Below, piece by piece: positions 18,601 through 57,476 of a stretch of DNA of 64,000 nucleotides. The DNA is from Malacoraja senta (Eukaryota): contig CM075993.1 in assembly GCA_038087875.1 (NCBI GenBank), positions 9,178,001-9,242,000 on the forward strand. Direction: 5' to 3'. The number at the start of each line of letters is the position of its first letter. Within the stretch, counting starts at the first letter, position 1. The translations under genes and the position numbers were made by a program. A model generated the notes under the pieces. That model was not told the DNA's origin, searched no databases, and saw only the letters and a program-made list of their open reading frames with translations.

Positions 18601-19444
18601 GAAAAGCGCCATCCTCCATGACTTCACCCAGGCTGAAGCAAAAGTAGAACTTCAGATATTGGGCTTACTTGGCAAATATCTGACTGGGCCTTGGATGAAA
18701 CGCTTCTACACTTCAAGCCAGAATCAGATCAACCATGTTGATGGCATCAAAGTGGTTAAAGGGGTGATTGCTGCTCTAAAGGAAGCCACAGAAAATCCAG
18801 AGAACATGATATTGGCAAGGGAAGATTTCTTCGGTGAGTAGGTACATCTTGACGCCACATTGAAAAAACTTTGGGAGCTACCAATACATCCACAGTTCAG
18901 TTCAAAGATGAGGAGCTGTCTTCAAGCTGTCATCACTGTGTTGGAGAGGCAATATAGTAAATACTTTGAACTTGATGTAACTGAGAAACTGAAGGAGACT
19001 GCATCAGCAAGATCACACAACATTGATGCGGAGGGAGATAATGGGTATGTTTAGCTCATCGAAACAGAAATCTCCCAATGCCACCATGTGTTATTTGTCA
19101 TGTCAAGTTCAAGTTCAAGTTTCCTTTATTGTCATTCAGACCTTTCGGTCTGAACGAAATTGTGATGCCTGCAGTCATACACAGAACCAATAATAACAAA
19201 CATACAATAAACACAAATTAAACATCCACCACAGTGAGTTCACCAAGCACACCCTCACTGTGATGGAGGCAAAGTCTTAGTCTCCGTCTCTTCCCTCCTT
19301 GTTCTCCCTCTGCGCTGAGGCGATCGATCCAGGCCGAAGATGCCGCCCTCCAGTCCAGCGGACCTCCGTGGTGATGTCGCTGCCGCCGAAAGCCGGAACG
19401 CCGTCTTCGCTCCGAGACGGCCCGCCACAGCATCAGCCCCGGGT

Positions 19445-19902
19445 CCCGCAGTCTCCGCTCCGGACCCCGCTGCACCAGCTCCAGGCCCCGCAGTCTCCGC
19501 TCCAGGCCGCTGCACCAGCTCCAGGCCCCGCAATCTCCGCTCCGGACCCCGCTGCACCAGCACCAGGTCCCGCAGTCTCCGCTCCGGACCCCGCTGCACC
19601 AGCTCCAGGCCCTGCAGTCTCCGCTCCGGCCCCGCTGTATCAGTTCCAGGTCCCGCAGTCTCCGCTCCGGACCCCACTGTACCAGCTCCAGGCCCTGCAG
19701 TCTCCACTCCGGACCCCACTGCATCAGCTCCAGGTCCCGCAGTCTCCGCTCCGGACCCCGCTGCACCAGCTCCAGGTCCCGCAGTTTCCGCTCCGGACCC
19801 CGCTGCACCAGCTCCAGGTCCCGCAGTCTCCGCTCCGGACCCCGCTGTACCAGCTCCAGGCCCCGCAGTCTCCACTCCGGACCCCGCTGCATCAGCTCCA
19901 GG
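19445..19902. repeat. 42-bp GC-rich minisatellite, about 11 copies
   Basis: Unit CCGCAGTCTCCGCTCCGGACCCCGCTGCACCAGCTCCAGGTC, giving 14-aa periodicity in all overlapping ORFs. Confidence 0.95.
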
Positions 19903-20175
19903 CTGCCGCCGAAAGCCAGAACGCCGCACCAGCAAGTCGGGCCACCGCTGCCTCCGCCCCGAAGACGGCCAGCCTCCCGTTGGTAAGTCCTGGCTGGCTC
20001 TGCCTCCGTAGCCTCGGGGTCGGTCGCAGGATGGAGGCGGCCACCCCCGCCATTAGGCCTCACCGCAGACGGAGGCAAGGAAGGGGGATACGACACGAAA
20101 GAGTCGCATTCCCCCGAAGGAGGAGACAGAGGACATGTTTCTCCCCCCCTAACACAACCCAACAAACTAAAACTT

Positions 20176-22510
20176 TTTTTCTTTTTTTTAAATTTGTATT
20201 TTATTAGAAGTACATTACATTACAACCACATACATTAGTACTTGTCATTTATATCTTCTTACAATTAATGTACTCCATTTATTTTTTACACTAGAAAAGG
20301 AAAAGATTGAAAGAAAGAAGAAAGTGAAGGAAAAAGTGAAAGTGTAGGAAATGTGACAACAAAAAAGGACGAAGACCCTATAAGAGCAAAATTAAAAACA
20401 AAAGAAAAAGAGTTAAGAAATAGACCCTAGGAAAGAAAGAAAGAGAGAAAGAGGAAAAAGAGAGAAACAAATATTTTTATGAGCATTACGTAAATGGGAC
20501 ATACCAACTCTTCAACTATCATCCCCCCTTACCTGACCTCAATTTTTTTTTTAAAGTACTTTTGCACCCTATGTTTGTAATAATTCTATAAATGCAGACC
20601 ACGTCAGGTGGAAGTGATCTGGTTTACCTGCTAGGAGGAGTCTTATCTCTTCTAGGTGTAATGTTTCAAACGTATTTGAAATCCACATATTTATAGTTGG
20701 TATTGGAGCCTTCTTCCAAAATTTTAGAATTAGCTTTTTTCCAGTTATTAACCCATAGTCCATTAGTTTCTTTTGAAACATTTAGATCTGGACCATCTTC
20801 CGTTATACCGAAGATAATCCATTCTGCTTTGGGTATCAGTCTTGTTTTAAATAACTTTGTAAAGATTTCAAAAATGTCATTCCAAAATTTTTGTACAAGA
20901 AACGAATGAGTGCGTTATGGTAGCTTCTTGGGATTGACATTTATCACAAATAGATGATACATTTGGGAAAATTTTATGAATTTTAGTTTTCGAATAATAT
21001 AATCTATGTAAAATTTTAAATTGTATTAAAGTGTGTCTTACATTAATCGAGCATTTATGCACGTTTAATAAGTATTCATTCCAACTTTCCTTTGAAATTT
21101 TAATAGCTAACTCTTGTTCCCAGTCTCTTCTGATACCCTCCGTAGATGGTATTTGTGCATTTAAGATAATATTATACAAATATGATATTAAGTTTGCTGA
21201 TTCCGCTTTTATCTGCATTGCCTCGTCCAGTACATCTGCTGGGTTATTATGATGATCTTTTGTATATTTTTTCAAATAGTCGCATATTTGAAAGTATTTA
21301 AAATATTGATTATTTCCGAGTTTATATTTTATTTGTAATTGTTGAAATGAAAGTAATTTTCCAGTTTCATACAAGTCACCAAGCGTTTTAATTCCTAATC
21401 TATCCCATTGTGTATAAGCTTTATCTATAATAGAAGGATTAAACGAAGGGTTATTGACTATAGGTAATAAAAGTGATAAATTTCTTAATTTTAAATTTTG
21501 TTTTATTTGTTTCCAAATTCGGATTGTACTATGAATAATTGGGTTCTTATTATAATTTATGTTATTCAATTTCATTGGAGAGAGGAGGATCGCTCCAATG
21601 TTTCTAGAGGAGCAATCCTCTTTCTCCATTACAATCCAGTCCGCTTGCTGGGCGGAGTTATCCATCAGTTGAATCATATTTTTAATATTTACTGACCAAT
21701 AATAATACATAAAATTAGGTAGTGCTAAACCCCCTAATACTTTAGGTTTATTCAGATGAGTTTTTTGTATTCTATGTGATTTATAGTCCCATATAAAATT
21801 AGTGATACCTGAGTCGAGTTTTTTAAAAAACTTCTTTGGTAAGTATATAGGAATTGATTGTAATAGGTATAAAATTTGTGGTAAAAAGATCATTTTTATT
21901 GCGTTTATTCGGCCTATTAAAGACATCGGGAGCGTTTTCCAGAATTTAATTAGTGTGTTTAATTTATTAAGTAAGGGGTCAAAATTTGCCCTAAACATAC
22001 CTTGATATGATCTGGTAATTTCGATTTCCAAATATTTAAATTTTTCTGTAGCTATTTTAAAAGGGAATTTTAAAAGATGTGTTGAATCTTTCGGTTTTAT
22101 TGACATAATTTCACTTTTATTCCAATTTATTCTATATCCAGAAAAAGATCCAAAATCTTCAATTAAATTTAATATATTTGGTATAGTGATTTGAGGTTTT
22201 GTAATGTACAGTAATATATCATCCGCGTATAAAGATATTTTATTATATGAATCTTTAGTATTATATCCATGGATATCAGGGTGTATTCTAATTTTTTCTG
22301 TTAGCGGTTCAATAATGAGAGCAAACAGTTGTGGTGATAATGAGCATCCTTGTCTATTTCCCCTTGATAGTTGGAATTTCGAGGATAATATGTTATTAGT
22401 TAGTATTCTAGCTGTAGGTTTGTTATATAGTAACTTGATCCATAGAATAAAATTCTCCCCCAGTTGAAATTTTTGTAATACTTTGTCCATATAATTCCAT
22501 TCTACTTGAT
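20176..22510 (-). mobile_element. 5'-truncated L1-clade LINE (RT C-terminal half, Cys-rich domain, 3' UTR, poly-A)
   Basis: ORF 22490-20877 with RQGCSLSP, YADD and a C-terminal CxxC...H..C; 13-bp TSD CAAACTAAAACTT at 20163-20175 and 22511-22523; T-run at the left end. Confidence 0.93.
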
Positions 22511-24247: not shown

Positions 24248-24811
24248 TTTCACTATAAAGCAGGCCACTCACCTAATATTTCTTCTTTTTAAAAATTATT
24301 TTAAAGTATTTATTAAATTTTAAAGTGTAATATTCTCCCAGTGCAATGTTCTACCTAGGTGTGATAATTATAATTTATCTACTATTTTAAGCAGTTAAAT
24401 AACGTATTGGATGTGACTTTGTCTTGTGTTTGAACTTGTTTTGGTTGCACTGATCAGTGATCAGCTCTCCTAATTTCGTTGTATTTCTAAGTACAATGAC
24501 AATAAAGGCTTAGTATTATTATTACTATTATTATCAGTACCCGAGCAGGAAGTTTTGATGGTAAAAATGAATGGAAAGAAAAACCTGGCCCCGTAAATCC
24601 TGTAAATTGTTTTGCCTTTTATTTATTTTTTTAAAAGCGAGGGTAAAAAAAGTTGATGCGGTAAAATGGGAACAATTGAGGCAGAAAACTGAAGTAAAAG
24701 CTCGAAGAGGAAATAGAAGAAAAAATAAATACGCCAAGACAAATCCCCGGGGAAAGGGCAGCGTGACTCGAGGGAAATGTGAGGGGGATCGGGCCTCCTT
24801 CCCGCCCTCAC

Positions 24812-24984
24812 CTGTACAGGTCGTAACCCGCAGCCCGCTCCGAGCCCCGCGTCGGACGCTGCGCGTTCTCGCTGAGTTTGGCGAACTTGAGCACGGCCGC
24901 CCTCGCCGGGGACACGGGCCTCCTCTTCAGCGGGGACGCGGCGCTCTTCGCCGGGGAAGCGGTGGCGGTTTCCGAGGTCGGCAT
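24812..24984 (-). CDS. DUT: dUTPase exon 1b (nuclear isoform start; MPTSETATASPAKSAASPLKRRPV...RGSERAAGYDLYS)
   Basis: dUTPase motif I AGYDL; basic NLS-like SPLKRR; donor AG|GTGAGG; CpG island. Confidence 0.97.
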
Positions 24985-25085
24985 GGCTGCGGGAGAGACT
25001 CGGTCAGTCAGTCAGGGGGAAGACAGCCAGCACAAACTGCCCGCCAAAACCAGGCTCACCAATCAGCGCCCGAGACTGCTCTAAA
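24985..25085 (-). promoter_or_regulatory. DUT nuclear-isoform proximal promoter overlapping the exon 1b splice acceptor
   Basis: CCAAT at about 25059-25063; E2F-like TTTTGGCGGG at about 25040-25049 on the minus strand; branch-point-like CTGAC repeats, pyrimidine tract and AG. Confidence 0.6.
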
Positions 25086-25087
25086 GC

Positions 25088-25536
25088 CCTTCCCTCACCT
25101 TCCTCTCCCTTAATCCTCTCCCCTCACCCTCCTCCTCCCCTCTCCCTCCTCCCCTCTCCCTCCTCCTCCTCCCCTCACCCTCCTCCTCCCCTCACCATCC
25201 CCTCTCCCTCCTCCCCTCTCCCTCCTCCTCCCCTCTCCCTCCTCCTCCCCTCACCCTCCTCCTCCCCTCACCCTCCTCCTCCCCTCACCCTCCTCCTCCC
25301 CTCACCCTCCCCTCTCCCTCCTCCCCTCTCCCTCCTCCTCCCCTCTCCCTCCTCCTCCCCTCTCCCTCCTCCTCCCCTCACCCTCCCCTCTCCCTCCTCC
25401 TCCCCTCACCCTCCTCCTCCCCTCACCCTCCTCCTCCCCTCACCCTCCTCCTCCCCTCTCCTCCTCCCCCCTCACCCTCCCCTCTCCCTCCTCCTCCCCT
25501 CACCCTCCTCCTCTCTCCCTCCTCCTCCCCTCCCCT
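25088..25536. repeat. Polypyrimidine/polypurine minisatellite, unit about CCCTC(A/T)CCCTCCTCCTC
   Basis: About 450 bp almost entirely C/T on the plus strand, with 14/17-bp periodicity. Confidence 0.95.
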
Positions 25537-25839
25537 TATCATGGTCTTCAGGATGGCCATGTGTACTGGGACCTCTGCAGCTCCTGGAGGCTGTGATATG
25601 ACAGGTCACCACTGAGGTGCTGTCTGAGAGGAGCAAAGATGGGGTATTTGACAGCTTTAACCTCTTTGGCTTTAACAGATCTCCTTGCGGCAGTGATTCT
25701 GGCGAGGCTGTTGTTTTGGGGTCAAGTTGATGGAGGTAATAGTGCAGACTAGGAGTGGTCTGTTTAGGTGCATGTTACAGCACAGATCATGCAGACATTT
25801 TTGTGCTCCTTCAGAATTACTCTAGGTGGTGTAGAGTAG

Positions 25840-33909: not shown

Positions 33910-36316
33910 CTGAAATTAGTTACAATGACCAAATCAAAGCACAATTAGTAGATCTTTAATAATAATTATTTAGAAACTAATGTATTATACACTTGATGTC
34001 GTACCAAAGTCTCACAATTTACTAAGTGCATCATTTTGCACTTTCACTGCAGATGTTCTGGATCTCCTATCTTCTTGATCCTGCTCTTTACACCAGTACT
34101 CCTGTGGTCTCCCTCCACAAGATGTGTTGTGCCTTTGATCAAGAGTGGGAGCGGCCAGATTTCTTAAAAGCCCCATGTGTGACTGGTAACACCAGTATAG
34201 TCGAGGTCCAGAGATTGTGGATTAAGAACACTACGGCTTAGTACAACTTCATCCTGCATCAAGTTGTGTCACTAAATGTAGCAATCAATGATGTTGCATT
34301 TCATTTAATCTCACTGAATGAACTGCTCCTCACTAAGCCAATGTTGGAGCTTAAATTATCTTAAATAATGCTGTGGATTTGTCGGTCAGCCTGAGTAGTG
34401 GCCAGATTACTCCTGTGTGGTCCTCATTACCCGTTCATTGGGTCATATTTCCGAAGGGATCAACAGCTTCAAATTAATGCCAAGCAGTTCATTTGTGCAC
34501 TTCTGCAACTTCGTACCGTCATTGTTGATTCAAGGAAACTGGTGTACAATGCTGAAGGGTATCAGTAAATCCAGACTGTGTTTGCAGGAGTAAATATTTG
34601 CTGAAAGAACATCACCCTACTTCTCCCTCCACTGAAGCTGCCTGACTTGCTGAATAGTTCCAACATTTATGTATTATTCCATCAATGAATGAGATCAACT
34701 TGCCTGAGAAGCTCCTGTGGCCATGTTAGTTATTTTAATTTTCTAAGTAACACTTCACAATAATTGTCAGTCATGACTGCTCTGAAACACCTTAGTTTGG
34801 GGGAGCAGCAAGCTTGATTTTCTGGGTCTACTGCCTCATATCGGGGACATCTGTGGGATTGGGTCCAATGAACCATCAAAAATAAATATTAATAGGAGAT
34901 TAGCTATGATGATCAGCCTAATAGGTAAACCATTAGGACAAGTGGAGAAGGCATTAATTGATCAAATATCTGAAATTTAGCCTGCATTTGTGAAGTGCAA
35001 ATATTATTCAATAAACTTAGTTTCATGAAGAGCAGTGTGGTTGGAATAGTGAAGATGGATTTTCAAAACGTTTAACAAAATGGACCAAATGGCACCCTTA
35101 AATCTCTGGTGTGCAGATACAAAAATGTCCAAGGAACACGATAAAGGAGCAATAAACATTGCCTCATAATCAAGACAATTAGGCGATTGACATCACTCAA
35201 GTTGCTGCTGAAATCACTGCTCCTTTTTGATGTGCCAACCATTTGGATGTCAGAGGAAATATTGTAATTCTAGATTTGCTAATCACATGAAATTCAGAAA
35301 TACCCATGAAAATTCATCCTCCAGGTGTATGTCCAATACATTAGTTGAAAGTTCTTATTGGATCTGGTTTTGCCACCTTTTCAGACAAAACATTCCAGAT
35401 GTTAATAATACTTAGAACATTTTTTCTCATGTCCATCCTTCTTGTTTGTTTGATTTGTCTATTATCTATAGATACTGATCCTAGGAAACAATTGTTCTCT
35501 ATTATAATTTTTCAGACACAATATTGAGTATTTTATGGACTAGATATTGCTGACTCTTGGGAGTAGCATGATTAGACCTGCTGGTGTTCAGCCATTGAAA
35601 CTTGAGCAAGTCCTAGACCACCATGTACTTAGGAAAGTGGAAGTGGAATGTTTAAGCAATAGTTTTAGAATATTTCTGAATATATAATATTCAGAAGCAA
35701 TCAGCCCTGGATTGTTTGTTGACAGAGGTCTCAGATTTTTTTCTCAGTTGTTTCACGAGCTGATGCCCCGTGTTGAGCAGAGCCTTGATATTTAGGATGA
35801 AGATGGCATTGGGCAGAAAGCTGATAAATCTGTTCACTGTTATCATGTAGATTATTGGGAAGTCATTGGCTTACTGCTGGCAGGAAGTTCTAGTCCATTG
35901 AATTAGGACCAAAATGTTGGCTAAAGAGGTAGAATTTTAAAAGTGCCACAAGGGTGTAAGAAAACAAAGAGATTTACAGGCACAGTCCTAATGCAGTGAT
36001 TAAATTTGGGAATAATAAAAATATCAGAATACATGCATAAACACATGAGGGTTGCCAAAGTGATTGTAGAGTTAGAGTGGTTAGCCATCATGGAAGTTTG
36101 AAAATGTAAGTGCTGTTTAACTGGGAATTCCGGGAGGAGAGGGGTGGGGCGAGTCCTGAATGGACATGAAGCAGCCAGCGCAACTTAAAATAGCAGGAGT
36201 GCAGTTTATGAAGGTAGAAGGAGGGATGTCCAGCCAGTAGTGTGCAGGAATGATTTAATCTGTCAACAAGGTAAAGATCTACTTTAATTAGAGGACCCCG
36301 GAGCAACCATTCATAC

Positions 36317-36403
36317 CTCTCCTTGCTTGGTTTCACGTTAATATCTCCAATGACCTTGATGTCAGCACACTGAATCCTAAATTTTCCCAGAAGTGCAGCC
36401 ATT
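36317..36403 (-). CDS. SLC12A1: SLC12A1 exon (MAALLGKFRIQCADIKVIGDINVKPSKE)
   Basis: 87-nt exon; MAxLLxKFRI motif; AG/GT sites. Confidence 0.97.
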
Positions 36404-39400
36404 CTGTAAAAAAGTCAGAGGAATGAAATGTGAAAAGAGCATTTAAAAGGAAAATTACACCAGGCTCTGTAAATCTGAATTAGAAACAAAGCATTGCAAA
36501 AACCTAGCAAAGTAAAGTGCAGTGGTAAGGAGCATAGGTGGATGCTGCACAACCTGATGTGAATGCTACTGATCTTAAACAATGTAATATTTATCTTGCT
36601 GTTCAATTCAATCATTCAAATGCTGGGGTTGGTCCTTTTTTTGATCACTACTACCATCCTGTTAAGAGATTTTTATTGAATCTACACTTTCTATAATTTG
36701 GGCTCAGAACAGCAGTTATTTGCCATTATATTCTTTTTTTTTAAATGCTATAGCCTTGGAATTGCAGTGCATGGTTAAGTGCATCATAAGGATGTTGACT
36801 GGTGTGCAAATGAGCTTTTAGTTTTAAATCTGCACACAAAAACTGTAGAGACTCGACTTGTGAAGACAAGGAAAATATGGTTTCAGAGACGACGGCTGGA
36901 TGAGAGACTTGGTGTGGTACAGGGGAGGATTTTGTAGTGCTTAGAGCCTCAGGGTTTTGTAAAATTGTACTTGGCTCCAGAAACAAACAATGCTATGCAA
37001 GATCAAATCTGTAGGCATATCATTTTGCATTCATTAGCATTTCATAGCACAAAAATATTCTTGTGGTACTTTGTATCTTGTGAAACCCAAACAATTCTTC
37101 CACATCATATGAAGTATAATTAATACTTTTGCTTAGCCAGGTTCTAATCTTCCACATTGCAACCAATTCTGCCATCTTACTAAAATCTCCTTTTGGCACA
37201 CTTTGGTCCTCAGTATGTGTATATTCAGCCTAGAAACTTTAAGATATCTCGAAGAACACATTAATTCAGCGGTGGGTGCAAACTCTCAAATGTTTTGTTT
37301 GAAGGCCACCATGTCAAAGTTCTATGTTAATGTTCACTGATTTTGTGCTTAGATTAGGCTTTGCACATTTTCTGCTTTGAACGGTATTGCAGATTGCAGA
37401 AAATAAGTCAATAAATCTCAAATCTAGGCCAGGGAGAACCCTTCTGTCATCATTTAATTTTGGTTACCCTAGACCGATTCCCAGTGGTCAGCTCTGCATT
37501 TTAAACAGTTTCCCTTTCAATATTGACTAAACTGACCTCACAAAAACTCAAGAGGTCTGCTGTTGCATACCACCAATGGGCCACGAGTGCCATGGACTAG
37601 TATCAAGTATGTCACTGTGCATGTTAAGATATTTATTTGCATTTACAGTTCTGATGCATGAAGGTCCATGAATATAAGGTGAGGAGTGTGTGGACGTCAA
37701 TGTTAATTCATTTTCCCCCTATTTTAATGATTTTTACGTTATTGATATTGTAATACAGATGTTGTAATAATAGGTGATACATTTTCTAAGTCTATATATA
37801 TTTAAGCATTATTTTCAAACACAGTGTATTCAAATTATGTACACAGGAATGAAACATATTAGAATTATTACTATTACTATTACATATTACTATTAGAATT
37901 ACCAGTGTCCACTGTATTTAAGAAACTTTTCTCGACTTTTATTTCTCTTCTTCTAACCAATTTTATAATCTTACTTGGTGTCTTCTTCATTCTGTACTGA
38001 GCATCAACACAGCCATGAAATATAATTACTCCAGTCTTCTGATATTTCCTTCCAAATCCTTCCTCCATGTAACCATACTTGAAAATTCCCCATGGCCAAA
38101 CCTTTATTTATTTAAATTGTCCAAACAGTGAATCAAGTGTCTGAAAGCAGTGTGGTTATTGGAGTTCATAAAAACTAATATTTTTGCATAGCCATTGGTT
38201 GGGGTCTGGAAGTCCAATAGGGGTAGAAGCGGTGGCATATTCATTTTTTGCATTCAAAAGGGAGCTGATTAATATCTAGAAAGAACAAAATTGCAGATAG
38301 AAGGCAGGAGAGGAGGAATAGCTGGATTGCTCTTGTATAGAGATAGCAGACTCAAAGGACTGAATGTCCCAATGTTACAATCATTGAGATTCTGAACTGC
38401 TGGCATGACAGAAAACCATTACTTAAAAATAGCTGAGGAGTACAGCAAAGGTCACAAACTACTTACACACCACTGTGAAAAGGTTATTGAAACCATTCAC
38501 TGCACATTTTAAATAAAATTATTAGTGGGGAGATTTCAAAGAAATTGTGTAATGGTATCAACTTGCAGAGATACGAATGTTATCCATAGACATTAATGTG
38601 AAATTTGCAATTTTTTAACTTGTATATGGCTGCTTATTAATGGAAAATTAAACAATGAAACTTTTACTAGACTTGCTTGTGCTGAAAATAGTTTGGTTAT
38701 TTAATGATTTAATATGCCTTGACCCCTCATCCACATAAAAACCAATGCGCTATCCACACATTTTTTTTTCTCCAGCTCTATTTCATACAGGCAAATTCTA
38801 AGCATGCAACAGCACTTCAATCCATTTCAATCAGTAGCAAACTGCCTCTTCCACCCCATTCCCCCACATCCCACTCTCAATAAGCAACATCCCAGTTCTT
38901 AAACATATCAGTTTCAAATATTGACCATTGATGTCCACAACTATTTCTAACTTCCAGGCAACTTGAGTGCCAACCATTTCCTAATCTTTCATTTATCCTG
39001 ATCCCAAGGACCAAAGGGAGCGAAAAGGAGTTTCTGGTAAGATGGCAAAATCGATTGTAAAGTGGAAGATGGGATTTGGCTGAAAAAATAAGTATGAGTT
39101 ATACTATATATGACATGGAAGAAGTGTTTGGGTTTCAATCACGATGCAGCTTCCCTCTCTCTGACTTTTTACAAATTCATCTAGTGTTTCTTAATTAAGA
39201 GTTTCCACTCCTAATTACCTTTCATCACAAAAGTTCAATGTTTTAACCCCTCTTTACCACTCTGCCATTTCGGAGAAGACATTTTACAGTGTAGTAAGCA
39301 GCATTCCAGCAATAAAACTGCTTTTCAGAAACACAAGGAACTGTAGATGCTGAAATCTTGAATAAAACAAAGTGCTGGAGCAACTCAGTGGATCAGGCAC

Positions 39401-41670: not shown

Positions 41671-44050
41671 AGGGGGGGGGGGGGGGAAGGTGTGGGTGTG
41701 TGTATATATAATTAAACTCCCATCGTTTTTTTTTTACCCTTTTCCCTTAACTTTACCCACATGGTTTCTACTGTATATCTTCTGATCTAATGTCGTTTCT
41801 TGCCAAGAACAGGACCGTACACAACCTCTGCTCTTTCTTATACTTATTCCTCCTTATCTGCTTTAAATAGAGCTGAACATTGATTGAACTGCTGATAATG
41901 CCCAGCACCCCCCATCATCCATTTCCCTCGTTTAGGACTACCTCTGTGCTGGCAGGATAGCTGATAAAGTTATGGATATGACATTATTTCCTACAATTCC
42001 ATTGGGTTGTTTTTTTTGTTTTTTTAAACAGGGACAATTTATGGACTGTCCACCAAGGCTCTGCCACTAACAGAGTGCTTAACCCACAGCCTACTTCAAA
42101 CTCACAAAATGGATCTGTTAGATCCATTGTTAGAATAAAGCACTCTTTTAACCCTGTTAATGTCAAAACCTTTGTCTACTCGTCCATCATTTCTGAACTT
42201 TAAATTCTTCAATAGTGCTCCCATATTCTCCAACTTCCCAATTATTCCTCAAATAAAAATCTTCCTCTTTCATCCTGTTCTAGTCAGTCAAATACAAATT
42301 CCTATGACGCTTTGTCCCATCTTACATTCAAAAATTCCCAGCCTTAAATTCCCTCTTGTCCTGACTCCACCCGCTCACACATTCTTCCCTCATGCATCAT
42401 TCCCTTAGCTAGTAGAAGGGGCATTTAATGCAGCAGCCTTCCCTTGAGAACTCCTTCCCAAAACATTTGTATCACTCTGCCCCCTTCACTTCATTCAGAA
42501 GGCTTTCTCAAAAATTGATGTACATTAAAACTCTATAATCTGTAAATCACAATGGTTCCACATCTAGTTCTCTAGATGTGCTCCCTTACATCTCATTGGG
42601 TCCTAGCTCCCACACTTCCTTCAACACACTGGAGCCTCCGTTCTTCCATTCACTTAAAACTCACCATACTCACTGGAAAATGTGTTATAGTATTGTGTAG
42701 CATCATGAAAAAGTAAAATGTGCATTGGTGCATTAAGAAACAAAATCCAATTGTGCTCCCCTCCCTCTCACTTCTATATACTGGCCATCTTCCTTCTCCA
42801 CTGTCCTGTTGCTGGTTCTTGACCTGAAAAATGCTGACCAACCCTTTGCCTCCACAGATGCTGCCTAACTCACTGATTTCTTCCAGCAGTTTATCTTTTG
42901 CTTGAGTCTGGAAAGATCTTAAGTGTACTAGATTAACTGTTCAATTATTTAAAAGTCATTCAAATTTATTCTAATCTGTTGAAGGTCCTTTGGGGAATTG
43001 AAATTTGTCTGATGAGTGATGAAACAGGGGCTCTCAGCTACGTATCATGTATTTGCACAGTCTCTTCAACCTCCAAATTAAAAAGCATCAGTTTTTAAAT
43101 AAAACTCTGGTATCCAGGTGGTAAACTGTTGCAATTTTATTTTACTGTTGGATATAATTTGAATTTAAAATAAATATGTTTCTTTACACCTCAATGTTTG
43201 TTGATAAATGCCATGTACCTTGACAACTTAGCGTTAGATATTAATTATATTTGAAGGTCAGTACATATAAGCCTAACCTATTCATGAAGGTTGCAGCTAA
43301 TTTGGCACTTGACCTTTTACAGTCAACACAGAAATAACAGGGCTCTTTCACATACAACATAGAAGGCCTGTACTTCATCCAAACAAAGTAAGGTTTAACA
43401 GTAATGTTCCAAACACTCCTTGGCTTGCTGCATTTTCCAGCTAACCAACATTAAGCAAATGCATGAGAGAAAGTTACTATAAAAGGCACAGAAGAGGTAC
43501 ATATGCAACTCTTGCTTCCACTTCCAGGAAAGCAGTTTAAAAAAATGCTTTCTGCTTGAAACATCCATATCCAATTGTCATTTCATGACTGTTGCCTAGA
43601 CTATATTTAAATATTGCCAAAAAGCAGCATTGTGGAGTAATGAGCTCTGTTATCAGTTTCAAGCATGTGGACAAAAAACAAATGGTGGAAGCTGCCATTC
43701 ACTCAGAATATCTGTAAAGTTGAAAGCTCATGTAACTATGGTATTTTCTCAATACTTGTGACTTAAAATTAATAACTTTACCAGCACAGAAAAGCACATT
43801 CCTGGGACTGAAAAATAATCTACTTCTTACTGATCAAAATCTCAATTTCATGCAACTCACAGGAAACTCTTTTCAATCATGTCAAAAAGCAACCATTGAT
43901 GTAAAAGGAGTGAACACAACCAGCCCGTGAATATCCATGAGATCGCAATCCCCACCCATTTTAAGTCATTCCAACTGAACCAATACTGTGTTTGCTGCCA
44001 GATTAAAATGATCCTAATGCAAGACACCTGGTGCAAAAGATGAGAAATTA

Positions 44051-47000
44051 AACCCCTGTCTCACGGTGCGAGCTGACCCACGAGGTACCCCGAGCTTAAA
44101 ACAAATTTAACTCGTGGTAATCACTTACGATTAACATTGTGGGAACGTCGGAACTCGTGGACGCAACTTAGCGACTCGTGGCGCTAACGGCAGGTACCCG
44201 TGAAACTTGTTAACTCTTGAAAAAGTTCAAACATGTTTAAAGTTTTCCACGAGTAAAATTTACTCTTGAGGTTAAAAATGGAAACATTTAAACTCGTTGT
44301 AAGAACTTGGTGGCCCTTGAGTTAAACTTAGTGACTCTTGAGTCTACCGTGTTGGATTAACGTTTCGAGTGCGATCTTTCATCAGAGCCGCGTTTAATTA
44401 ATAAATCCAGCCACGGTATTTTGACATCAGTTAGAATTTCTTCTGGAATATGATCTATTTCGCTTTAATTCATAAAATGAGTGAGGAAGAGTCACTGGAG
44501 TTTGAAGAAGCGGTGAGAAACCACAGCCAGTCCGCCACGGAGAACATGCCAGATTATAAACCAGACCAAGCCACCACTCCAGAACCCAGGACTCAGCCAC
44601 CAACGGCAGCGGTGGCACCCAGGAGAAGAACCAGTGGCGGCGGGAGGTCCCGACGTTGAAGCAGCCCAGAAAAGTTGATCCCAAGCATTGGGCTGAGTAT
44701 CTGGAAAGAGCCAGGAAGAACGCCGCAGCCAAGCCAACAACAACAACGCGAGGAATCACAGATAAACCTCAGGGGGGTTCCCAGGCATCTGTGGAGGGAA
44801 GGGAAGCGTCGGGAGATGACCAGGATAGCCCAGTGGACGAGGAATTCATCGCGGTGACCACCAGGCGGCCACGAGAGGTTCCAATCACATTGGTATCTCC
44901 TCGCATAAGGCCAAAGGATCCCCATGCGAATGGAGCGCCAGTGGTGGCACAGTCTCCAATGCTGGTACAGACCACACCACCTAACGAAAGGGAGACAACG
45001 TTTCCAATGAGCCAGGTGTCCACATACCCCAGTCTGCATCCTGTGCCTACAGATTCCATTGATAAAAGGAGACCGGGAGGTGTCAAAGCCCCAACTGTAA
45101 CTCCCCAACAACCCAATGCTGAAGGGCAAATGACGTTCTCCGATGATATTTTGGATCTTCATGTTACCCATGCACCTACCCCAGCCACAATGCGGATGGC
45201 CACACCAGAGGCAGATATAATCCCACCAGGAGAACATACAACACAAGTGGAGGTCTCTAAAGGCGGGAGCGTGACCATCAGTGGCGGCCACCATCACCCT
45301 ATGACCACCAAAGACCATGGTCATCAAGTCCCGCTTGAGCCCAGGCAGAAAGCCACAGACTCTCCACCCCCCTTGCTATCCACCACTGTCAGCCAGCGGA
45401 GCCACACTGTCACCGACGCCTCAGTTTCCAAACCAAGGCTTTGGGGACGAAGACGGAAACAGCCATACAGGCGTCGATACGGCCGGCCAGGTGTTAACAA
45501 ACACTGGTATAGCATTGTGAGACCGGTTCGGCGGAGACACGGCGGGTCGGCACTGACAGTCACATCGCAACTCCGCTATCACCGAAGTCCCACTGCGACT
45601 CCCGTTCCCACTGTCCCTTCCCACACAGACTGAGATAGCACTGATGGAGAACGCCGGAGTTCCCCCTCAGCCACAGATCCAGTTTGGCAGAGGTCCCTTG
45701 GAGGAAGACGATCGGGCAATCAGTCCCGATAGCAACGCACAAGCCCCCACTTGGAAAACCACGACACAACCGCTGGCGACCAGTCCAGGCACCAGCCCGA
45801 ACCCTACCTTACTAGCTATCAAGAGACCTACAGAAAGTCCACCCCAAATTATCTACTCAACATATACTCCAACCACTATCCAGCCTACCAGCCAGCCCCA
45901 CAAGACTGTTCGTGGAAAGATCCCTTGGGATAGGCTTTTCGGGTTCAATAGTCAAAGGGATGTACTCCGGAGGCTTCGGAAACCCATGAAGGGTACCGGG
46001 CCTAAAATTGTTACTCAAAGGACGTTCGTTCTGACCAAGCCGACTCTCCAAGATGTGGTGACCTCGGTGCCAATGGTAGAACTCACGGTATTCCCTCTCA
46101 ACACCCCACGTACCCAAGACACCACCACCGGACAAACCACGCGGGTTACCATTACCTCTGCCGGCAAGATTACAAGGACCATCCTCCCATCTACCGTTGA
46201 AACGGCGGCGGTCACTACAGAGACCACCCCTATCACAGTCACCACTACCCGGGCAACCTTCACCACCAGACAACGGCCGTTCTTCCGGCGCAGGAGACCG
46301 GGAAAGCCCTTCGGTAGAACCAAGAGCCGAGCGTTCTTTTCGAGGCCCACCTCCGGACGGAATCGCTCGGTGGCGTCGGCGGCTGAGAACAGGAAGACAA
46401 TACTAGACACGACGAAAACTAGATTGGCCGTGACTCCGACTGTCCCAGTAACCACAAAAGCGCCTCTTCCTGTTGCAGTAGAGACCAGCACTTGGAACAT
46501 TGGTGCGCACTGGAGACGTTACCCTTACTCCAGCTTAAATTTATTACGTCGTTATTAACGGCCAGTATTTGAAAGGTTATCCTTTAAATGAAATAGTTAT
46601 TGCCATTCCTAAAGGCTTTTGCGAAAACTTAAACCGTGGTTTATTATTAAGATACTTGCGAATGTTGTTTCATTAACAAATGCTCCTGCAGTGTAGATGA
46701 CATGTGCATGTACCTTTAACATAGTGACCTCACCACTACTAACCACTCCCCACATCACTAGTATAATTACAACCTTCCCACCCAGTGCTCTCGCTCTCTG
46801 GTTCCGGTGACAGACCACGAACAGCTAGGGCAGTAAAGTATGTGTATCATGAATAAACAGTAGTAAAGACACAGTGTGTTATGACACCTCTTTACATGTA
46901 GTTACTGAGTTCAATTTAAAAACACAACAGTGCCTTCAGTGGATTTATTTCTAAAAAAAAACCTTTATTCATAAAAAGATGTACAGGATATGCAATACAC

Positions 47001-48039
47001 CAATGCCATGTGTAATTTCAAAAATAATCTTTCTCCTGAATAAAAATATGTATAAAACAAAAACCGTGCGAAATCTTTTCATAGATTCTCAGTGGTTAAT
47101 GCCTTCGGTATTTTTCTAAAATAAACTTTACTCAGAATAAGAAATGTGCACAAAACAAAAACAGTGCAATGCATTATCAGTGTCTATACATTCAATAGTG
47201 TCATACTTAGGACTGTTTCCATCTATATTTAAACTAAACTCTCTTGTCGCTATGTGCCCCTTGGGGTGATATCCCTACCCTTGTCTGACGGGTGTCCCCA
47301 TTTCAATATCCTGCAGCGGAAGGGCCATAGACTGTGGTCCAAATGAACTGCACGTAAATGCAATGCAGATACAAATATTCTGTGTCTGTGTCTGCCATTT
47401 CCGTCTTTAAGGCTTCCATGTCACAATTGCCAGTTCAATGAGTAATTCGGCTTAATTCAGATTTTATATGCGGATGCGAATAGTTTAATTATAAAGTTTA
47501 AATTCTATTAAATATGTTACAGGGGAAAAACGTCCAGCAATGAAAAGACATCCCTGTATTTAAATAGCGCCCATCACAAACTCAGGAGGTTCCAACGTCT
47601 ATTACAGTAAAGGAAGTACAGTGAACGTACTTGGATAAACATAATGTTGAGCATGAATATTGTTTCGTTTAAAAACGGTGGTAACAAGGTTTGTAAATAT
47701 GCAAAGGCAGACAAAAAATGCTGGAGAAACTCAGCGGGGGAGGCAGCACCTACGGCGAGAAGAGATATGCGACGTTTCGGGTCGAAACCCTTCTTCAGTA
47801 ACACTGTTGCTTATTAAAACAGACCTTCATTCACGTTTGGCTCAAGAGTAACTCGGGAGAGGAATTTGGTAACTCGGGAGACAAACTTGGAACATCGCAG
47901 AAATGACAAGTTAACGGCAAACCTAGTCATACCCGTGGGAACTCGGTTAAACTCTTGATCATACACTTGGAATCTCGTACACAACCACGAGTCTTTCACT
48001 CGTACCTCGTGGGTCAACTCACACCGTGAAACAGGGCTA
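44051..48039. mobile_element. Non-autonomous PIF/Harbinger-like TIR element carrying a captured host-gene fragment (Pack-type)
   Basis: 38-bp TIRs at 44051-44088 and 48002-48039 with 5 mismatches; TTA on both flanks (44048-44050, 48040-48042); subterminal ACTCGTG/CACGAG repeats; no transposase ORF seen. Confidence 0.85.
44477..46558 (+). pseudogene. IGSF10: Captured IGSF10-like central mucin-like region, about 690 codons with two frameshifts
   Basis: RKVDPKHWAEYLERARKN, EASGD..DEEFIAVTT, KHWYSIVRP and RGKIPW occur in the same order as motifs recalled from IGSF10 (RRIDPQHWAALLEKAKKN, SSG...EEF, RHRYSIFR, KIPW). No LRR, Ig or signal-peptide sequence. Confidence 0.75.
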
Positions 48040-48700
48040 TTATACCAAGCATTTATAAATCAATGAGTTATAAATCAGTTAAATTACAATATTTAATTAT
48101 AAACACTGTATTTAGAAAGGATAACAATTATTAGGGTAAACAATCATTCTTCAGCAATCAAATAATGTTTTGCTTGTGTGCACCCACCACTAGGAAATGT
48201 GGTTGTGTACAAGGCTTGGTCAGGCCTTACCTTCACATAGAATGCAGAGCAGTTTGTGAGATCAGGGAGGTTGACATGTTTAAGTACAGGGGCCACTAGA
48301 GTCAATGGTTAAAGAATGAAATTGGATATTAGTTCACAGTTGGGATGTACTGGGATGGGTGGGTTGCAAGTTAGGAGCTTGGGTGGGGAAGATTACTATT
48401 GACAAAGTTGAGGTGTTGGAAGAAAGTCTAAAGGAATGCTGGATAAATAAATAACTTAAGGGGCCAAGTTTTTACGGTGCTGCCGTGTCACCGATCCCTT
48501 TTGTTGCACAGGTGTCAGCTTCAAAGGAGCAATGAAAGCATGTATTTGGCATCCTCACTTAGAATGTCAGATGCAAAGCATCCAGAATCACAATCACAAA
48601 CTTCATGATACAAAGCTGATTTTCAGTGGAAGTGTCTCACTGTGATGGTAAATATTCAAATAATTTAAACACTGAGTTCATAATTTCAAACTAAACTTAC

Positions 48701-48812
48701 GCCCGTTTCTCCTCATTAATGCTATCCAACTTCCCGCCAATAAAGATACGCAATTTGCAACCAGACCACTTTTTCCGTGTCGTTAACAGATACGGAATGA
48801 GAATCGTCAAAC
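48701..48812 (-). CDS. SLC12A1: SLC12A1 exon ([37 protein letters not shown])
   Basis: 112-nt exon; conserved LIPYLL...CKLRI motif; AG/GT sites. Confidence 0.97.
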
Positions 48813-49798
48813 CTATTAAAGCAAAGATATTGGGATTAAAAATTAAGTGAGATTGGCTATATATTCATTTAACATTCAAAGATTTTTTTATACAATAGAT
48901 CAGTTATTCTAGGTAACAGATGAGAGCTAACTTTCACACCATCAATACATCAGATATGCTTTTAACATTTTCAATCAAAATATTTTTTACTCTATTATTG
49001 TTCCCCAAACATAGATTTTTCAGCTGGGAAAAAAGATACTGTACAGGTTTCATAAATGTTTTCAATATCAGCATACTTAGCCATGTTACGACATTCCTTC
49101 AAACCCCACCCCAGAAAAGGGTGCACAATCTACGTTAGCACTTCAGCGCATGACTGGGTTTGTGTTATACAGCTTTCAGATGTATTAAACCATTACCCCG
49201 TCTGCCCTTTTTAAGATGGATGTAAATGATCCAACCGCACGATCCGAATAGTACGTTGAATTCTTCCAGGAAGAATATTTCTCCCTTATTCAACATGATC
49301 ATTTTACCCCTGGATGTAGGAGTTTGCTATGTGTAAATTGGATGCCATGTTTTAAAATATAAAAGTGACTATGGTGTCACGGACACAGGCCAATCAGCCC
49401 AACTCAACAACGCCATCCAGTGGACACCCTCCATATTAATCCCAATCCCAGCAGTTGGTCCATTGCCTCATCTGCCAAGATCATCTAGATCATTAAATGC
49501 TGTTTGGAATTATTTCAATGACCATAAAATGCTTTCATGATCTTAATGTCATGAAAGATATCTTAATGCAAGCCTGTCCTACTTTCATAACCAAAGATCT
49601 TTTTAATTCAAATGAACACAGCCACAAAATCTTATAATTTTGATCCATGCATTAAAATTAGATGTGCTGGAAGGAACTGCAGATGCTGGTTTAAATCATA
49701 CACAAAATGCTGGAGTAACTCAGCGGGACATGCAGAGAAGGAATGTGGCCCTTCTTCAGACTGCATTAAAATTAGATGTTTTGGACAATATTTCATAC

Positions 49799-54253: not shown

Positions 54254-57200
54254 TATGTACAAAAGGGACGGATTGCATCTTAACAGGTGTGGGACCAGCA
54301 TTCTGGCAGGCAGGTTTGCCACTGCTACACGGATGGTTTTAAACTGAATAAGGGGGGTGGGGTTTCGAATGGGATAGTGGAGGATGGAGTTAAAGGGAAA
54401 GGGTTTCTTAAATGTGTGAGCGTAGAGACAGAGGAGTGTAAAATGAGGGTAGAAGCAATAGGTAGCAAGGTGAAAAGTAAAAGTGGAAGACAGACAAAAC
54501 CAGGGCAAAAATCAAAAAGGGCCACTTTTCAACATAATTGTATAAGGGGTAAGAATGTTGTAAAAACAAGCCTGAAGGCTTTGTGTCTCAATGCAAGGAG
54601 CATTCGTAATAAGGTGGATGAGTTGAATGTGCAGATAGCTATTAATGACTATGATATAGTTGGGATCACGGAGACATGGCTCCAGGGTGACCAAGGCTGG
54701 GAGCTGAACATCCAGGGATATTCAATATTCAGGAGGGATAGAGAGAAAGGAAAAGGAGGTGGGGTAGCGTTGCTGGTTAGAGAGGAGATTAACGCAGTGG
54801 AAAGGAAAGACATTAGCTTGGAGGATGTGGAATCGGTATGGGTAGAGCTGCGAAACACTAAGGGGCAGAAAACGCTGGTGGGTGTTGTGTACAGGCCACC
54901 TAGCAGTAGTAGTGAAGTTGGGGATGGCATCAAACAGGAAATTAGAAATGCGTGCGACAAAGGCAAAACTGTTATAATGGGTGACTTCAATCTACATATA
55001 GATTGGGTGAATCAAATTGGCAGCGGTGCTGAGGAAGAGGATTTCTTGGAATGTATGCGGGATAGTTATCTAAATCAACATGTAGAGGAACCAACGAGAG
55101 AGCAGGCTATTTTAGACTGGGTATTGAGTAATGAGGAAGGGTTAGTTAGCAGTCTTGTTGTACGTGCCCCCTTGGGCAAGAGTGACCATAATATGGTTGA
55201 GTTCTTCATTAGGATGGAGAGTGACATTGTTAATTCAGAAACAATGGTTCTGAACTTAAAGAAAGGTAACTTTGAGGGTATGAGACATGAATTGGCCATG
55301 ATTGACTGGCAATTAATTCTAAAAGGGTTGACGGTGGACATGCAATGGAAGACATTTAAAGACTGCATGGATGAACTACAAAAATTGTTCATCCCAGTTT
55401 GGCAAAAGAATAAATCAGGGAAGGTAGTGCATCCATGGATAACAAGGGAAATCAGGGATGGTATCAAAGCGAAAGATGATGCGTACAAATTAGCCAGAAA
55501 AAGCAGCATACCAGAGGACTGGGAGAAATTCAGAGACCAGCAGAGGAGGACAAAGGGCTTAATTAGGAAAGGAAAAATAGATTATGAAAGAAAACTGGCA
55601 GGGAACATAAAAACTGACTGCAAAAGTTTTTATAAATATGTAAAAAGAAAGAGATTAGTTAAAACAAATGTAGGTCCCTTGCAGTCAGAAACAGGTGAGT
55701 TGATCATGGGGAACAAGGATATGGCGGACCAATTGAATAACTACTTTGGTTCCGTCTTCACTAAGGAAGACATAAATAATCTGCCGGAAATAGCAGGGGA
55801 CCGCGGGTCAAAGGAGTTGGAGGAATTGAGTGAAATCCAGGTTAGTCGGGAAGTGGTGTTGGGTAAATTGAATGGATTAAAGGCCGATAAATCCCCAGGG
55901 CCAGATAGGCTGCATCCCAGAGTACTTAAGGAAGTAGCTCCAGAAATAGTGGATGCATTAGTAATAATCTTTCAAAATTCTTTAGATTCTGGAGTAGTTC
56001 CTGAGGATTGGCGGGTAGCAAACGTAACCCCACTTTTTAAGAAGGGAGGGAGAGAGAAAACGGGGAATTACAGACCAGTTAGTCTAACATCGGTAGTGGG
56101 GAAACTGCTAGAGTCGGTTATTAAAGATGGGATAGCAGCACATTTGGAAAGTGGTGAAATCATTGGACAAAGTCAGCATGGATTTACGAAAGGTAAATCA
56201 TGTCTGACGAATCTTATAGAATTTTTCGAGGATGTAACTAGTAGCGTGGATAGGGGAGAACCAGTGGATGTGGTGTATCTGGACTTCCAGAAGGCTTTCG
56301 ACAAGGTCCCACATAAGAGATTAGTATACAAACTTAAAGCACATGGCATTGGGGGTTCAGTATTGATGTGGATAGAGAACTGGCTGGCAAACAGGAAGCA
56401 AAGAGTAGGAGTAAACGGGTCCTTTTCACAATGGCAGGCAGTGACTAGTGGGGTACCGCAAGGCTCAGTGCTGGGACCCCAGCTATTTACAATATATATT
56501 AATGACCTGGATGAGGGAATTGAAGGCAATATCTCCAAGTTTGCGGATGACACTAAGCTGGGGGGCAGTGTTAGCTGTGAGGAGGATGCTAGGAGACTGC
56601 AAGGTGACTTGGATAGGCTGGGTGAGTGGGCAAATGTTTGGCAGATGCAGTATAATGTGGATAAATGTGAGGTTATCCATTTTGGTGGCAAAAACAGGAA
56701 AGCAGACTATTTTCTAAATGGTGGCCGACTAGGAAAAGGGGAGATGCAGCGAGACCTGGGTGTCATGGTACACCAGTCATTGAAAGTAGGCATGCAGGTG
56801 CAGCAGGCAGTGAAGAAAGCAAATGGTATGTTAGCTTTCATAGCAAAAGGATTTGAGTATAGGAGCAGGGAGGTTCTACTGCAGTTGTACAGGGTCTTGG
56901 TGAGACCACACCTGGAGTATTGCGTACAGTTTTGGTCTCCAAATCTGAGGAAGGACATTATTGCCATAGAGGGAGTGCAGAGAAGGTTCACCAGACTGAT
57001 TCCTGGGATGTCAGGACTGTCTTATGAAGAAAGACTGGATAGACTTGGTTTATACTCACTAGAATTTAGGAGATTGAGAGGGGATCTTATAGAAACTTAC
57101 AAAATTCTTAAGGGGTTGGACAGGCTAGATGCAGGAAGATTGCTCCCGATGTTGGGGAAGTCCAGGACAAGGGGTCACAGCTTAAGGATAAGGGGGAAAT

Positions 57201-57476
57201 CCTTTAAAACCGAGATGAGAAGAACTTTTTTCACACAGAGAGTGGTGAATCTCTGGAACTCTCTGCCACAGAGGGTAGTCGAGGCCAGTTCATTGGCTAT
57301 ATTTAAGAGGGAGCTAGATGTGGCCCTTGTGGCTAAAGGGATCAGAGGGTATGGAGAGAAGGCAGGTACGGGATACTGAGTTGGATGATCAGCCATGATC
57401 ATATTGAATGGCGGTGCAGGCTCGAAGGGCCGAATGGCCTACTCCTGCACCTAATTTCTATGTTTCTATGTTTCTA
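54254..57476 (+). mobile_element. CR1 LINE: ORF1 3' end, intact ORF2, 3' UTR and (TTTCTATG)n tail
   Basis: ORF1 remnant MYKRDGLHLN...VLN* (SGNH esterase-like DxxH) ending about 54347; ORF2 uninterrupted; octamer tail. Confidence 0.97.
54287..57379 (+). CDS. CR1 ORF2: APE endonuclease plus reverse transcriptase (true start codon uncertain)
   Basis: 1030 open codons; NARS, ITETW, GDFN and SDH endonuclease motifs; NYRPVSLTS, GVPQGSVLGP and FADD RT motifs. Confidence 0.97.
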   Translation: MWDQHSGRQVCHCYTDGFKLNKGGGVSNGIVEDGVKGKGFLKCVSVETEECKMRVEAIGSKVKSKSGRQTKPGQKSKRATFQHNCIRGKNVVKTSLKALCLNARSIRNKVDELNVQIAINDYDIVGITETWLQGDQGWELNIQGYSIFRRDREKGKGGGVALLVREEINAVERKDISLEDVESVWVELRNTKGQKTLVGVVYRPPSSSSEVGDGIKQEIRNACDKGKTVIMGDFNLHIDWVNQIGSGAEEEDFLECMRDSYLNQHVEEPTREQAILDWVLSNEEGLVSSLVVRAPLGKSDHNMVEFFIRMESDIVNSETMVLNLKKGNFEGMRHELAMIDWQLILKGLTVDMQWKTFKDCMDELQKLFIPVWQKNKSGKVVHPWITREIRDGIKAKDDAYKLARKSSIPEDWEKFRDQQRRTKGLIRKGKIDYERKLAGNIKTDCKSFYKYVKRKRLVKTNVGPLQSETGELIMGNKDMADQLNNYFGSVFTKEDINNLPEIAGDRGSKELEELSEIQVSREVVLGKLNGLKADKSPGPDRLHPRVLKEVAPEIVDALVIIFQNSLDSGVVPEDWRVANVTPLFKKGGREKTGNYRPVSLTSVVGKLLESVIKDGIAAHLESGEIIGQSQHGFTKGKSCLTNLIEFFEDVTSSVDRGEPVDVVYLDFQKAFDKVPHKRLVYKLKAHGIGGSVLMWIENWLANRKQRVGVNGSFSQWQAVTSGVPQGSVLGPQLFTIYINDLDEGIEGNISKFADDTKLGGSVSCEEDARRLQGDLDRLGEWANVWQMQYNVDKCEVIHFGGKNRKADYFLNGGRLGKGEMQRDLGVMVHQSLKVGMQVQQAVKKANGMLAFIAKGFEYRSREVLLQLYRVLVRPHLEYCVQFWSPNLRKDIIAIEGVQRRFTRLIPGMSGLSYEERLDRLGLYSLEFRRLRGDLIETYKILKGLDRLDAGRLLPMLGKSRTRGHSLRIRGKSFKTEMRRTFFTQRVVNLWNSLPQRVVEASSLAIFKRELDVALVAKGIRGYGEKAGTGY

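Follow-up and report, generated by a model that had tools for sequence, protein, structure and literature searches.

A multicopy Pack-TIR element in the skate Malacoraja senta carries a captured piece of an IGSF10 exon

In Pack-TIRs, host DNA lies between the ends of one terminal inverted repeat (TIR) element. In a survey of 100 animal genomes, 370 of them are reported, with a median cargo of 224 bp and 13.4% exonic (Tan et al. 2021, PMC8277862). Twenty-one rows of its list are PIF-Harbinger (frogs and alligator), with source spans of about 105-805 bp, and elephant shark has 0 Pack-TIRs. Four (1.4%) are multicopy; the example shown has three copies, and no orthologous evidence was found there for the origin of the four cases. 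Here we describe an element at positions 44051-48039 of a 64,000-nt stretch of Malacoraja senta CM075993.1. The whole stretch is called the window, and positions without a prefix are window coordinates. The element carries a piece of an exon of the gene IGSF10. It is a multicopy Pack-TIR, a class already known in vertebrates, and is unusual in cargo size, coding content and copy number.

Apart from the retrocopy control treated below, the element has the features by which Pack-TIRs are recognized in Tan et al. (2021). The cargo lies between the terminals of one TIR element and falls within 100-5,000 bp, its source is unique and is matched at 90% or more, and the source is not flanked by the element. 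Short junction overlaps (median 2 bp in that survey), multiple copies with distinct target-site duplications (TSDs) and a distant source are shared as well. The same chimeric structure stands at 22 loci, each with its own flanks apart from two pairs described below. The skate element differs in its cargo of about 2.1 kb, which is wholly coding, in its 22 loci and in a second-round chimera. Half of the parent was replaced, compared with a median gap of 4.6% in the single-copy cases of Tan et al. A larger single cargo is in their list, that of human ARF6 (3,585 bp). The skate case stands at the large, high-copy end of the vertebrate Pack-TIRs in that list, and its chain of evidence from source to empty site is unusually complete.

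Drosophila Ssk-FB4, described in the same source (PMC8277862), also began with one capture of coding DNA followed by repeated transposition. It contains nearly a whole gene, is translated, shows positive selection and has 4 copies, whereas the skate element holds an internal exon piece that is evolving neutrally. Gene capture of this kind is best known from plants. In Gisby and Catoni (2022, PMC8903248), plant Pack-TYPE elements are likewise non-autonomous TIR elements that multiply gene fragments and recombine within a family, and Harbinger-PIF is among the superfamilies surveyed. Like Pack-MULEs, the skate element has a GC-rich cargo (56% versus 36% in the parent interior); unlike them, it is of another superfamily (3-bp TWA duplication, short TIRs) and has an animal host. 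With the non-autonomous PIF/Harbinger elements treated in Han et al. (2015, PMC4482050) it shares TWA and a TIR below 60 bp starting with A or G, but its interior is host-derived. The initial annotation of the window had called such elements sparsely documented in vertebrates. Given the animal and PIF-Harbinger numbers above, this is too strong for Pack-TIRs as a whole; for the multicopy kind it stands. The literature we could reach, with repeat libraries and most subscription journals beyond it, gave no report for skates or other cartilaginous fish and none of IGSF10 capture. The family may already be catalogued in Repbase/Dfam.

The element and its target site are laid out as follows.
44048-44050 (+), left copy of the TSD, TTA, from the flank sequence and from an empty site shorter by the element plus 3 bp
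44051-44088 (+), left TIR, 38 bp, matching the right TIR at 33 of 38 bases
44089-44350 (+), left subterminal region; its cluster of ACTCGTG-like repeats probably serves as binding sites for the mobilizing proteins
44351-44479 (+), inner left arm, common to cargo-free parents, giving in-frame ATGs at 44450 and 44477
44480-46525 (+), captured IGSF10 DNA, Thr/Pro-rich stalk from the middle of a giant exon, 96.2% to C8:22187251-22189327, GC 56%
46526-46691 (+), element DNA 3' of the right junction, present in cargo-free parents; the stop at 46556-46558 ends the frame
46692-46896 (no strand), TG...CA insert of 205 bp, like a solo long terminal repeat, with near-identical 5-bp flanks TGCAG/TGTAG
46897-47809 (+), inner right arm, including a high-copy piece near 47700-47800 that resembles a short interspersed element (SINE)
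47810-48001 (+), right subterminal region with a repeat cluster, from the motif count against shuffles
48002-48039 (-), right TIR, 38 bp, inverted repeat of the left TIR
48040-48042 (+), right copy of the TSD, TTA, from the flank sequence and the empty-site length

Empty sites were found in all three other organisms compared (runs X3, X6 and X7). In each, a single contig joined 44046 to 48039 and skipped 3,992 bp. This length equals the 3,989 bp of the element and a single TTA, so 44051-48039 was inserted as a unit and duplicated 3 bp. In run X1, which may be the assembly's own sample, short-read contigs spanned both joins between flank and TIR with zero differences, and also the 3' cargo join.

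ACTCGTG-like motifs were counted on both strands with at most 1 mismatch. The left end (44051-44350) had 10, where 300 shuffles gave a mean of 0.6 and a maximum of 5; the right end (47810-48039) had 8, with a shuffled mean of 0.5 and a maximum of 3. The cargo, the inner right arm and both flanks had 0-2 each. A tblastn search of the window with a Harbinger transposase from the same genome gave no match, and two long open reading frames (ORFs) of the cargo had no Pfam match. The 205-bp insert was private to the window copy among the loci compared and very high-copy elsewhere. Relative to the source, the window cargo had 49 substitutions and deletions of 25, 2 and 3 bp. The first two are frameshifts near 44652 and 45556, and the third is in frame. 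The initial annotation had already seen the 38-bp TIRs with TTA on both flanks, the motif clusters at both ends and the lack of a transposase, and had looked to an empty TTA site in related species; all of these were borne out. Its coding interior of about 2.1 kb is indeed IGSF10 coding sequence, but the bounds 44477-46558 needed correction. The captured part is 44480-46525, the frame ends in 33 bp (46526-46558) that belong to the element and not to IGSF10, and it is shifted twice.

The longest cargo ORF of the window matched Amblyraja radiata IGSF10 at 89% over 319 amino acids (E 2e-179). Against gecko MXRA5 the E value was 0.02, which is no real match. A 357-amino-acid ORF of the window had no match among database proteins of 626-2,000 amino acids. 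That range excluded full-length IGSF10; the identity of the cargo was taken from the source exon. In a genome search with the cargo, all 23 candidates scored were the source and 22 element loci. The source locus (C8:22187251-22189327) aligned to element bases 429-2475 only, at 96.2% and without the arms. The exon that contains it is open for 1,413 codons and encodes three immunoglobulin (Ig) domains. The best database matches of this exon were A. radiata IGSF10 (94%) and IGSF10 of other cartilaginous fish, whereas MXRA5 reached 28-30%. Residues 1-2408 of the 2,570 of Amblyraja IGSF10 mapped to five stretches in 24 kb of C8, four of them 92-96% identical and the first 79%. No TIR-like motif was found in the 24 kb C8:22176000-22200000 (the last 162 IGSF10 residues fall outside), and both cargo flanks there are IGSF10 exon. 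The source gene is intact, and no TIRs accompany it. The cargo, 2,076 bp with 56% GC at the source and 2,046 bp in the window copy, corresponds to the stalk (residues about 691-1376 of Amblyraja IGSF10) without an Ig domain, leucine-rich repeat domain or signal peptide. These matches indicated that the cargo is orthologous to IGSF10, not MXRA5, as the initial annotation had proposed from four motifs.

A 34-base TIR pattern had 1,212 forward and 1,241 reverse matches in the genome (2,453), whereas the control had 0. The family comprises roughly 1,200 elements, sister subfamilies included. One complete cargo-free parent (on C2) is 3,689 bp long and has a 1,943-bp AT-rich interior of 36% GC. It has no long frame; the longest are 86-119 amino acids. 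Cargo-free parents align to element bases 1-429, then differ, and are common again from element base 2474. Thus, the capture swapped out 1,943 bp, about half of the parent, for the 2,076-bp IGSF10 piece. Compared with parent and source, the left junction has an overlap of 1 bp and the right one of 2 bp. A long family member on C878 was considered as a transposase carrier and rejected; its extra length is an insertion of a long interspersed element (LINE). Other cargo-free members, including L030 and L049, have differing interiors with GC-rich pieces, pieces rich in CT/CA repeats and SINE-like fragments.

The 22 cargo-bearing loci consist of 12 with the full cargo, the window included, and 10 with its 3' 915 bp only. 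Two pairs of loci in opposite orientation share flanks at 99.7%: L041/L046 (C2:11.05 and 10.98 Mb) and L038/L040 (C2:159.37 and 159.50 Mb). The other flanks are unrelated. Since two pairs have common flanks, there are about 20 independent insertions. The flanking trinucleotides matched in 16 of the 20 loci with both ends, and in 14 of 18 after the pairs were merged (P 0.015 versus 0.5). One insertion has a non-canonical TGA/TGA, which is not expected from target preference alone. The right flank is TWA in 18 of the 20 loci and TGA in the remaining two.

The consensus of the full-cargo copies has 29 differences from the source, nearly all common to every full-cargo copy. Sixteen of them fall in the 3' part and are also present in the short form. 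These shared fixed differences indicated one capture. In the star-like cargo tree, 16 of 20 inner branches are open, and full-cargo copies are 1.0-2.0% from their own consensus, indicating one burst.

The left arm of the short form is that of a cargo-free sister subfamily (L049). At its join, the L049-type arm and the cargo agree at 21 of 22 bases, with a 3-base gap in addition. The alignment indicated that the short form arose when the template switched a second time, here at real homology, and that it then transposed further. Its 10 loci represent 8 independent insertions. The shared sites and the shared 3' junction show that it was derived from the full-cargo form.

The window copy (L001) and L002 (C17:8.38 Mb) lie 0.84 Mb apart on the same contig. 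They have the 25-bp and 3-bp deletions and several substitutions in common and different flanks, so they represent a local hop. Although L046 has the flanks of L041, its place in the cargo tree is with L039, a pattern that suggests conversion between copies or an assembly mosaic. At C5:44595893-44626504 or beyond (L014, L031), a family member without cargo, whose left flank is unrelated, turns window-identical within the right arm. There are 12 differences from the window in 46899-47162 and 0 in 47163-49539. The locus runs on into the upstream SLC12 exons of the host gene (described below) without the downstream ones. Because the right-flank depth in run X1 was not doubled (3.97 versus 4.18), this locus is likelier a misjoined alternate haplotype than a real duplication. 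The place at C5:44.6 Mb was also considered as the other allele of the insertion site with a cargo-free element and was rejected, as its left flank is unrelated.

We consider it very probable that a non-autonomous Harbinger element made a single capture and that transposition and neutral decay followed. The family of roughly 1,200 elements, with its 3,689-bp cargo-free form, is the starting point. In one member, the 1,943-bp interior was replaced by 2,076 bp of the IGSF10 exon. The product is at hand, and the likeliest cause would be a template switch to IGSF10 and back during DNA repair or replication synthesis. A Harbinger transposase and its Myb/SANT partner, acting in trans on the intact ends, would then have carried the element in one burst to new TWA sites, among them the window intron, leaving the 12 full-cargo copies. 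One copy swapped its left part with the sister subfamily, giving the 915-bp form now at 10 loci, and the copies have decayed neutrally from then on. The initial annotation had likewise proposed that a TIR element took a piece of the IGSF10 exon into an SLC12 intron, and source, parent, junctions, copies and empty site agree with it. Its expectation of further copies with TWA duplications of their own was borne out, with matching trinucleotides at 16 of 20 loci.

Several observations weigh against this account. No autonomous element with the exact TIRs or the subterminal repeats was found in the 7 loci opened of the 150 transposase matches listed (534 candidates), and each Harbinger locus showed one end-like motif, not both termini. 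Flanks are unmatched in 4 of 20 loci (TAA/TTA, TTA/TAA, TTT/TTA and one damaged end), and an intact right end is absent in 2 of 22. The 1-bp and 2-bp junction overlaps are within chance and are no proof of a repair pathway. The tree alone does not put the second form inside the first (support 75/90, an open fork). Mosaic copies (L046 and the C5 locus) mean that conversion or assembly misjoins blur the counts.

The vehicle is likely, with good support, a non-autonomous PIF/Harbinger element. PIF/Harbinger elements are defined by a TWA duplication and by TIRs that begin with A or G and are mostly below 60 bp (Han et al. 2015, PMC4482050). The element has a 3-bp TWA duplication and a 38-bp TIR, and the first base is A in the family. 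At least 150 DDE_Tnp_4 matches occur in the M. senta genome, with 150 of 534 candidates scored. In 3 of the 7 Harbinger-transposase loci opened, a motif agreed with the first 16 TIR bases at 14 positions, and in one more locus at 13; none of 30 shuffles per locus reached 14. Loci L052 and L053 had no end-like match. The loci with end-like motifs seem to represent about two related families. One end-matching locus also has a MADF-like ORF, which is weak (E 0.003) and below the cut-off. In the window and the family loci compared, tblastn gave no transposase match, so the DDE transposase and Myb/SANT ORF of an autonomous element were not seen there. The Harbinger-like assignment of the initial annotation stands on TWA and the 14-of-16 ends, and lacks an autonomous element sharing the TIRs among the loci opened.

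The same capture could instead have been made by a vehicle of another superfamily with a 3-bp TWA duplication, e.g. Zator. In PMC12905397, Zator-1 has 33-bp TIRs and a TAA duplication, and a TAA/TWA duplication is the sole Zator-compatible feature here. That no cognate Harbinger was among the loci opened also favors this alternative. It is nevertheless unlikely, since the TIR matches the end-like motifs beside DDE_Tnp_4 transposases, one of them with the MADF-like ORF.

Two further Harbinger loci were observed. L033 (C8:22204621-22205118) is a broken gene for a Harbinger transposase, located 15 kb from the source exon of IGSF10. As a local donor it was rejected, because it has no TIR or arm match except the SINE-like piece, and it is of a different family from the Pack element. 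L050 (C341:14000-19500) is a DDE_Tnp_4 locus with a Harbinger-like end motif adjoining and a second ORF of 551 amino acids with YqaJ/alkaline exonuclease and PHD matches. It is an exonuclease-bearing member of the Harbinger/ISL2EU group.

The cargo could also have come by an RNA route, in which a piece of IGSF10 mRNA was reverse-transcribed by CR1-type LINEs and then incorporated into a broken element. The window and the loci contain LINE reverse-transcriptase ORFs. The retrocopy control used for Pack-TIRs in Tan et al. (2021) looks for intron loss, which cannot be scored here because the cargo is inside one exon. However, compared with parent and source, the cargo joins have no poly(A) and no duplication, and neither end is a splice site or a transcript end. 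The 1,943 bp of the parent were replaced, not interrupted, and the right arm already points to non-mRNA captures by the family. We judge this route quite unlikely.

The part of the right arm in question is 47049-47738. It is at single-copy depth in three other organisms and diverges by about 5% in X3, at 30 of 650 bases, yet it has up to 741 candidate places in M. senta. For this reason, it is probably an earlier capture of single-copy host DNA by the parent. One old element at the outgroup locus fits too. No source locus was singled out as non-element among the 40 of 741 candidates scored. The interiors of the sister subfamilies may be further host-DNA captures. The Harbinger lineage might then be a serial capture vehicle like plant Pack-MULEs, with the right arm and the parental and sister interiors as successive captures. 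Because the right arm is single-copy in three other organisms, this idea has some support, and we see the case for and against it as evenly balanced.

In all 12 full-cargo copies, an arm ATG is in frame; the consensus cargo has no stop, and the element stop lies 11 codons past the junction. With in-frame ATGs from the left arm and the stop from the right arm, about 700 codons were open in the founder. L008 (C2801) retains an open 707-amino-acid frame starting at the left-arm ATGs. The other 11 copies are broken, the window copy by its two frameshifts. Copies have 3.25 disablements on average; at that rate chance would leave 0.47 copies intact, and the probability of at least one is 0.38. Under neutrality with the same mutation spectrum, the 296 distinct substitutions should comprise 200 nonsynonymous, 85 synonymous and 10.5 stops, and 209, 79 and 8 were observed. 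L008 alone has 22 nonsynonymous and 8 synonymous substitutions (20.5 and 8.5 expected). Fixed differences of the native stalk are themselves near-neutral (20:9 nonsynonymous:synonymous). Since the native stalk is weakly constrained, the amino-acid test is blunt; the frameshifts are not so affected. The 707-amino-acid ORF of L008 had no protein of similar length among 7,999 candidates scored, a weak result that is silent on expression. By these measures the cargo appears to be a passenger with no detectable protein-coding constraint, and not a new gene.

A functional new gene, now or formerly, would have a promoter and ATG in the left arm and make a stalk-only protein of about 700 amino acids without a signal peptide, today from L008. 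The in-frame ATGs, the stop-free consensus, the element stop and the open frame of L008 speak for it. With 11 of 12 copies broken, one intact copy compatible with chance and L008 substitutions near the neutral expectation, it is very unlikely. Serial capture combined with transcription from the left arm, so that L008 still yields a stalk-only protein of 707 amino acids or the 22 copies, one of them antisense in an SLC12 intron, give RNAs that act on IGSF10, is an unlikely proposal; the evidence for its expressed and functional half is the open frame itself.

That the locus is no transposed unit, but two independent miniature inverted-repeat elements that enclose duplicated DNA, a segmental duplication or an artefact of assembly, is refuted in spite of the duplicated or chimeric copies in the assembly (the two 99.7% flank pairs and the C5 locus), since the empty sites lack exactly the whole unit plus 3 bp, the other loci have distinct flanks, and X1 contigs cross both flank-TIR joins and the 3' cargo join. 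None of the three outcomes that had been named beforehand as fatal to the capture, namely a lack of IGSF10 similarity, cargo without TIRs at the orthologous site or two independent miniature elements, appeared.

At 20 residues, the cargo consensus and the source differ. Amblyraja has the cargo state at 15, the source state at 4 and neither at 1. Cargo and source both differ from Amblyraja at 44 further residues. Assuming equal rates, the capture would lie about halfway between the Amblyraja split and today, an uncalibrated estimate. In X3, X6 and X7, the cargo region was at or below flank depth, and the aligned part of the contigs ended at the cargo edges; run contigs show presence, not absence. 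In X1, the cargo depth was 22 and 42 versus 4 for the flanks, with 42 where both cargo forms overlap.

Two exons of the host gene enclose the element.
48700-48813 (-), SLC12 (NKCC-type) exon upstream of the insertion, PF03522 positions 245-283
36307-36405 (-), next SLC12 exon found, PF03522 positions 283-315
As both are on the minus strand, the cargo lies antisense in an SLC12 intron. The gene is NKCC-type by the neighboring exon, with SLC12A2 as the best solved match, and a dUTPase exon is at about 24810-25000, 20 kb from the element. By the gene order SLC12A1-DUT, the gene is presumably SLC12A1, a kidney transporter. The SLC12A1 intron of the initial annotation agrees with the NKCC-type exons and the nearby dUTPase exon, and the name SLC12A1 is probable.

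Other features of the window were also observed. A 1,031-codon open LINE frame is at 54284-57379 (+) in an SLC12 intron, presumably CR1-like with endonuclease and reverse transcriptase. Because the matching C5 intron is about 3.2 kb shorter, this insertion may be polymorphic. Two long ORFs (286 and 408 amino acids) at 16701-18841 (+) have no Pfam match and look like a broken DNA-transposon gene. The long ORFs seen in several frames at 19218-20219 and 24891-25615 are spurious products of GC-rich tandem arrays.

Among surveyed animals, multicopy Pack elements are rare, with 4 cases in 100 genomes in Tan et al. (PMC8277862). Here, source exon, parent, both junctions, second chimera and empty site are available, which lets capture and spread be followed step by step in a vertebrate. 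The copies can be mis-annotated as IGSF10 paralogues or mucins and draw reads from IGSF10, and they seem to be the cause of at least one misjoin in the assembly. Keeping the Amblyraja state at 15 of the 20 residues, they are also a dated fossil of IGSF10.

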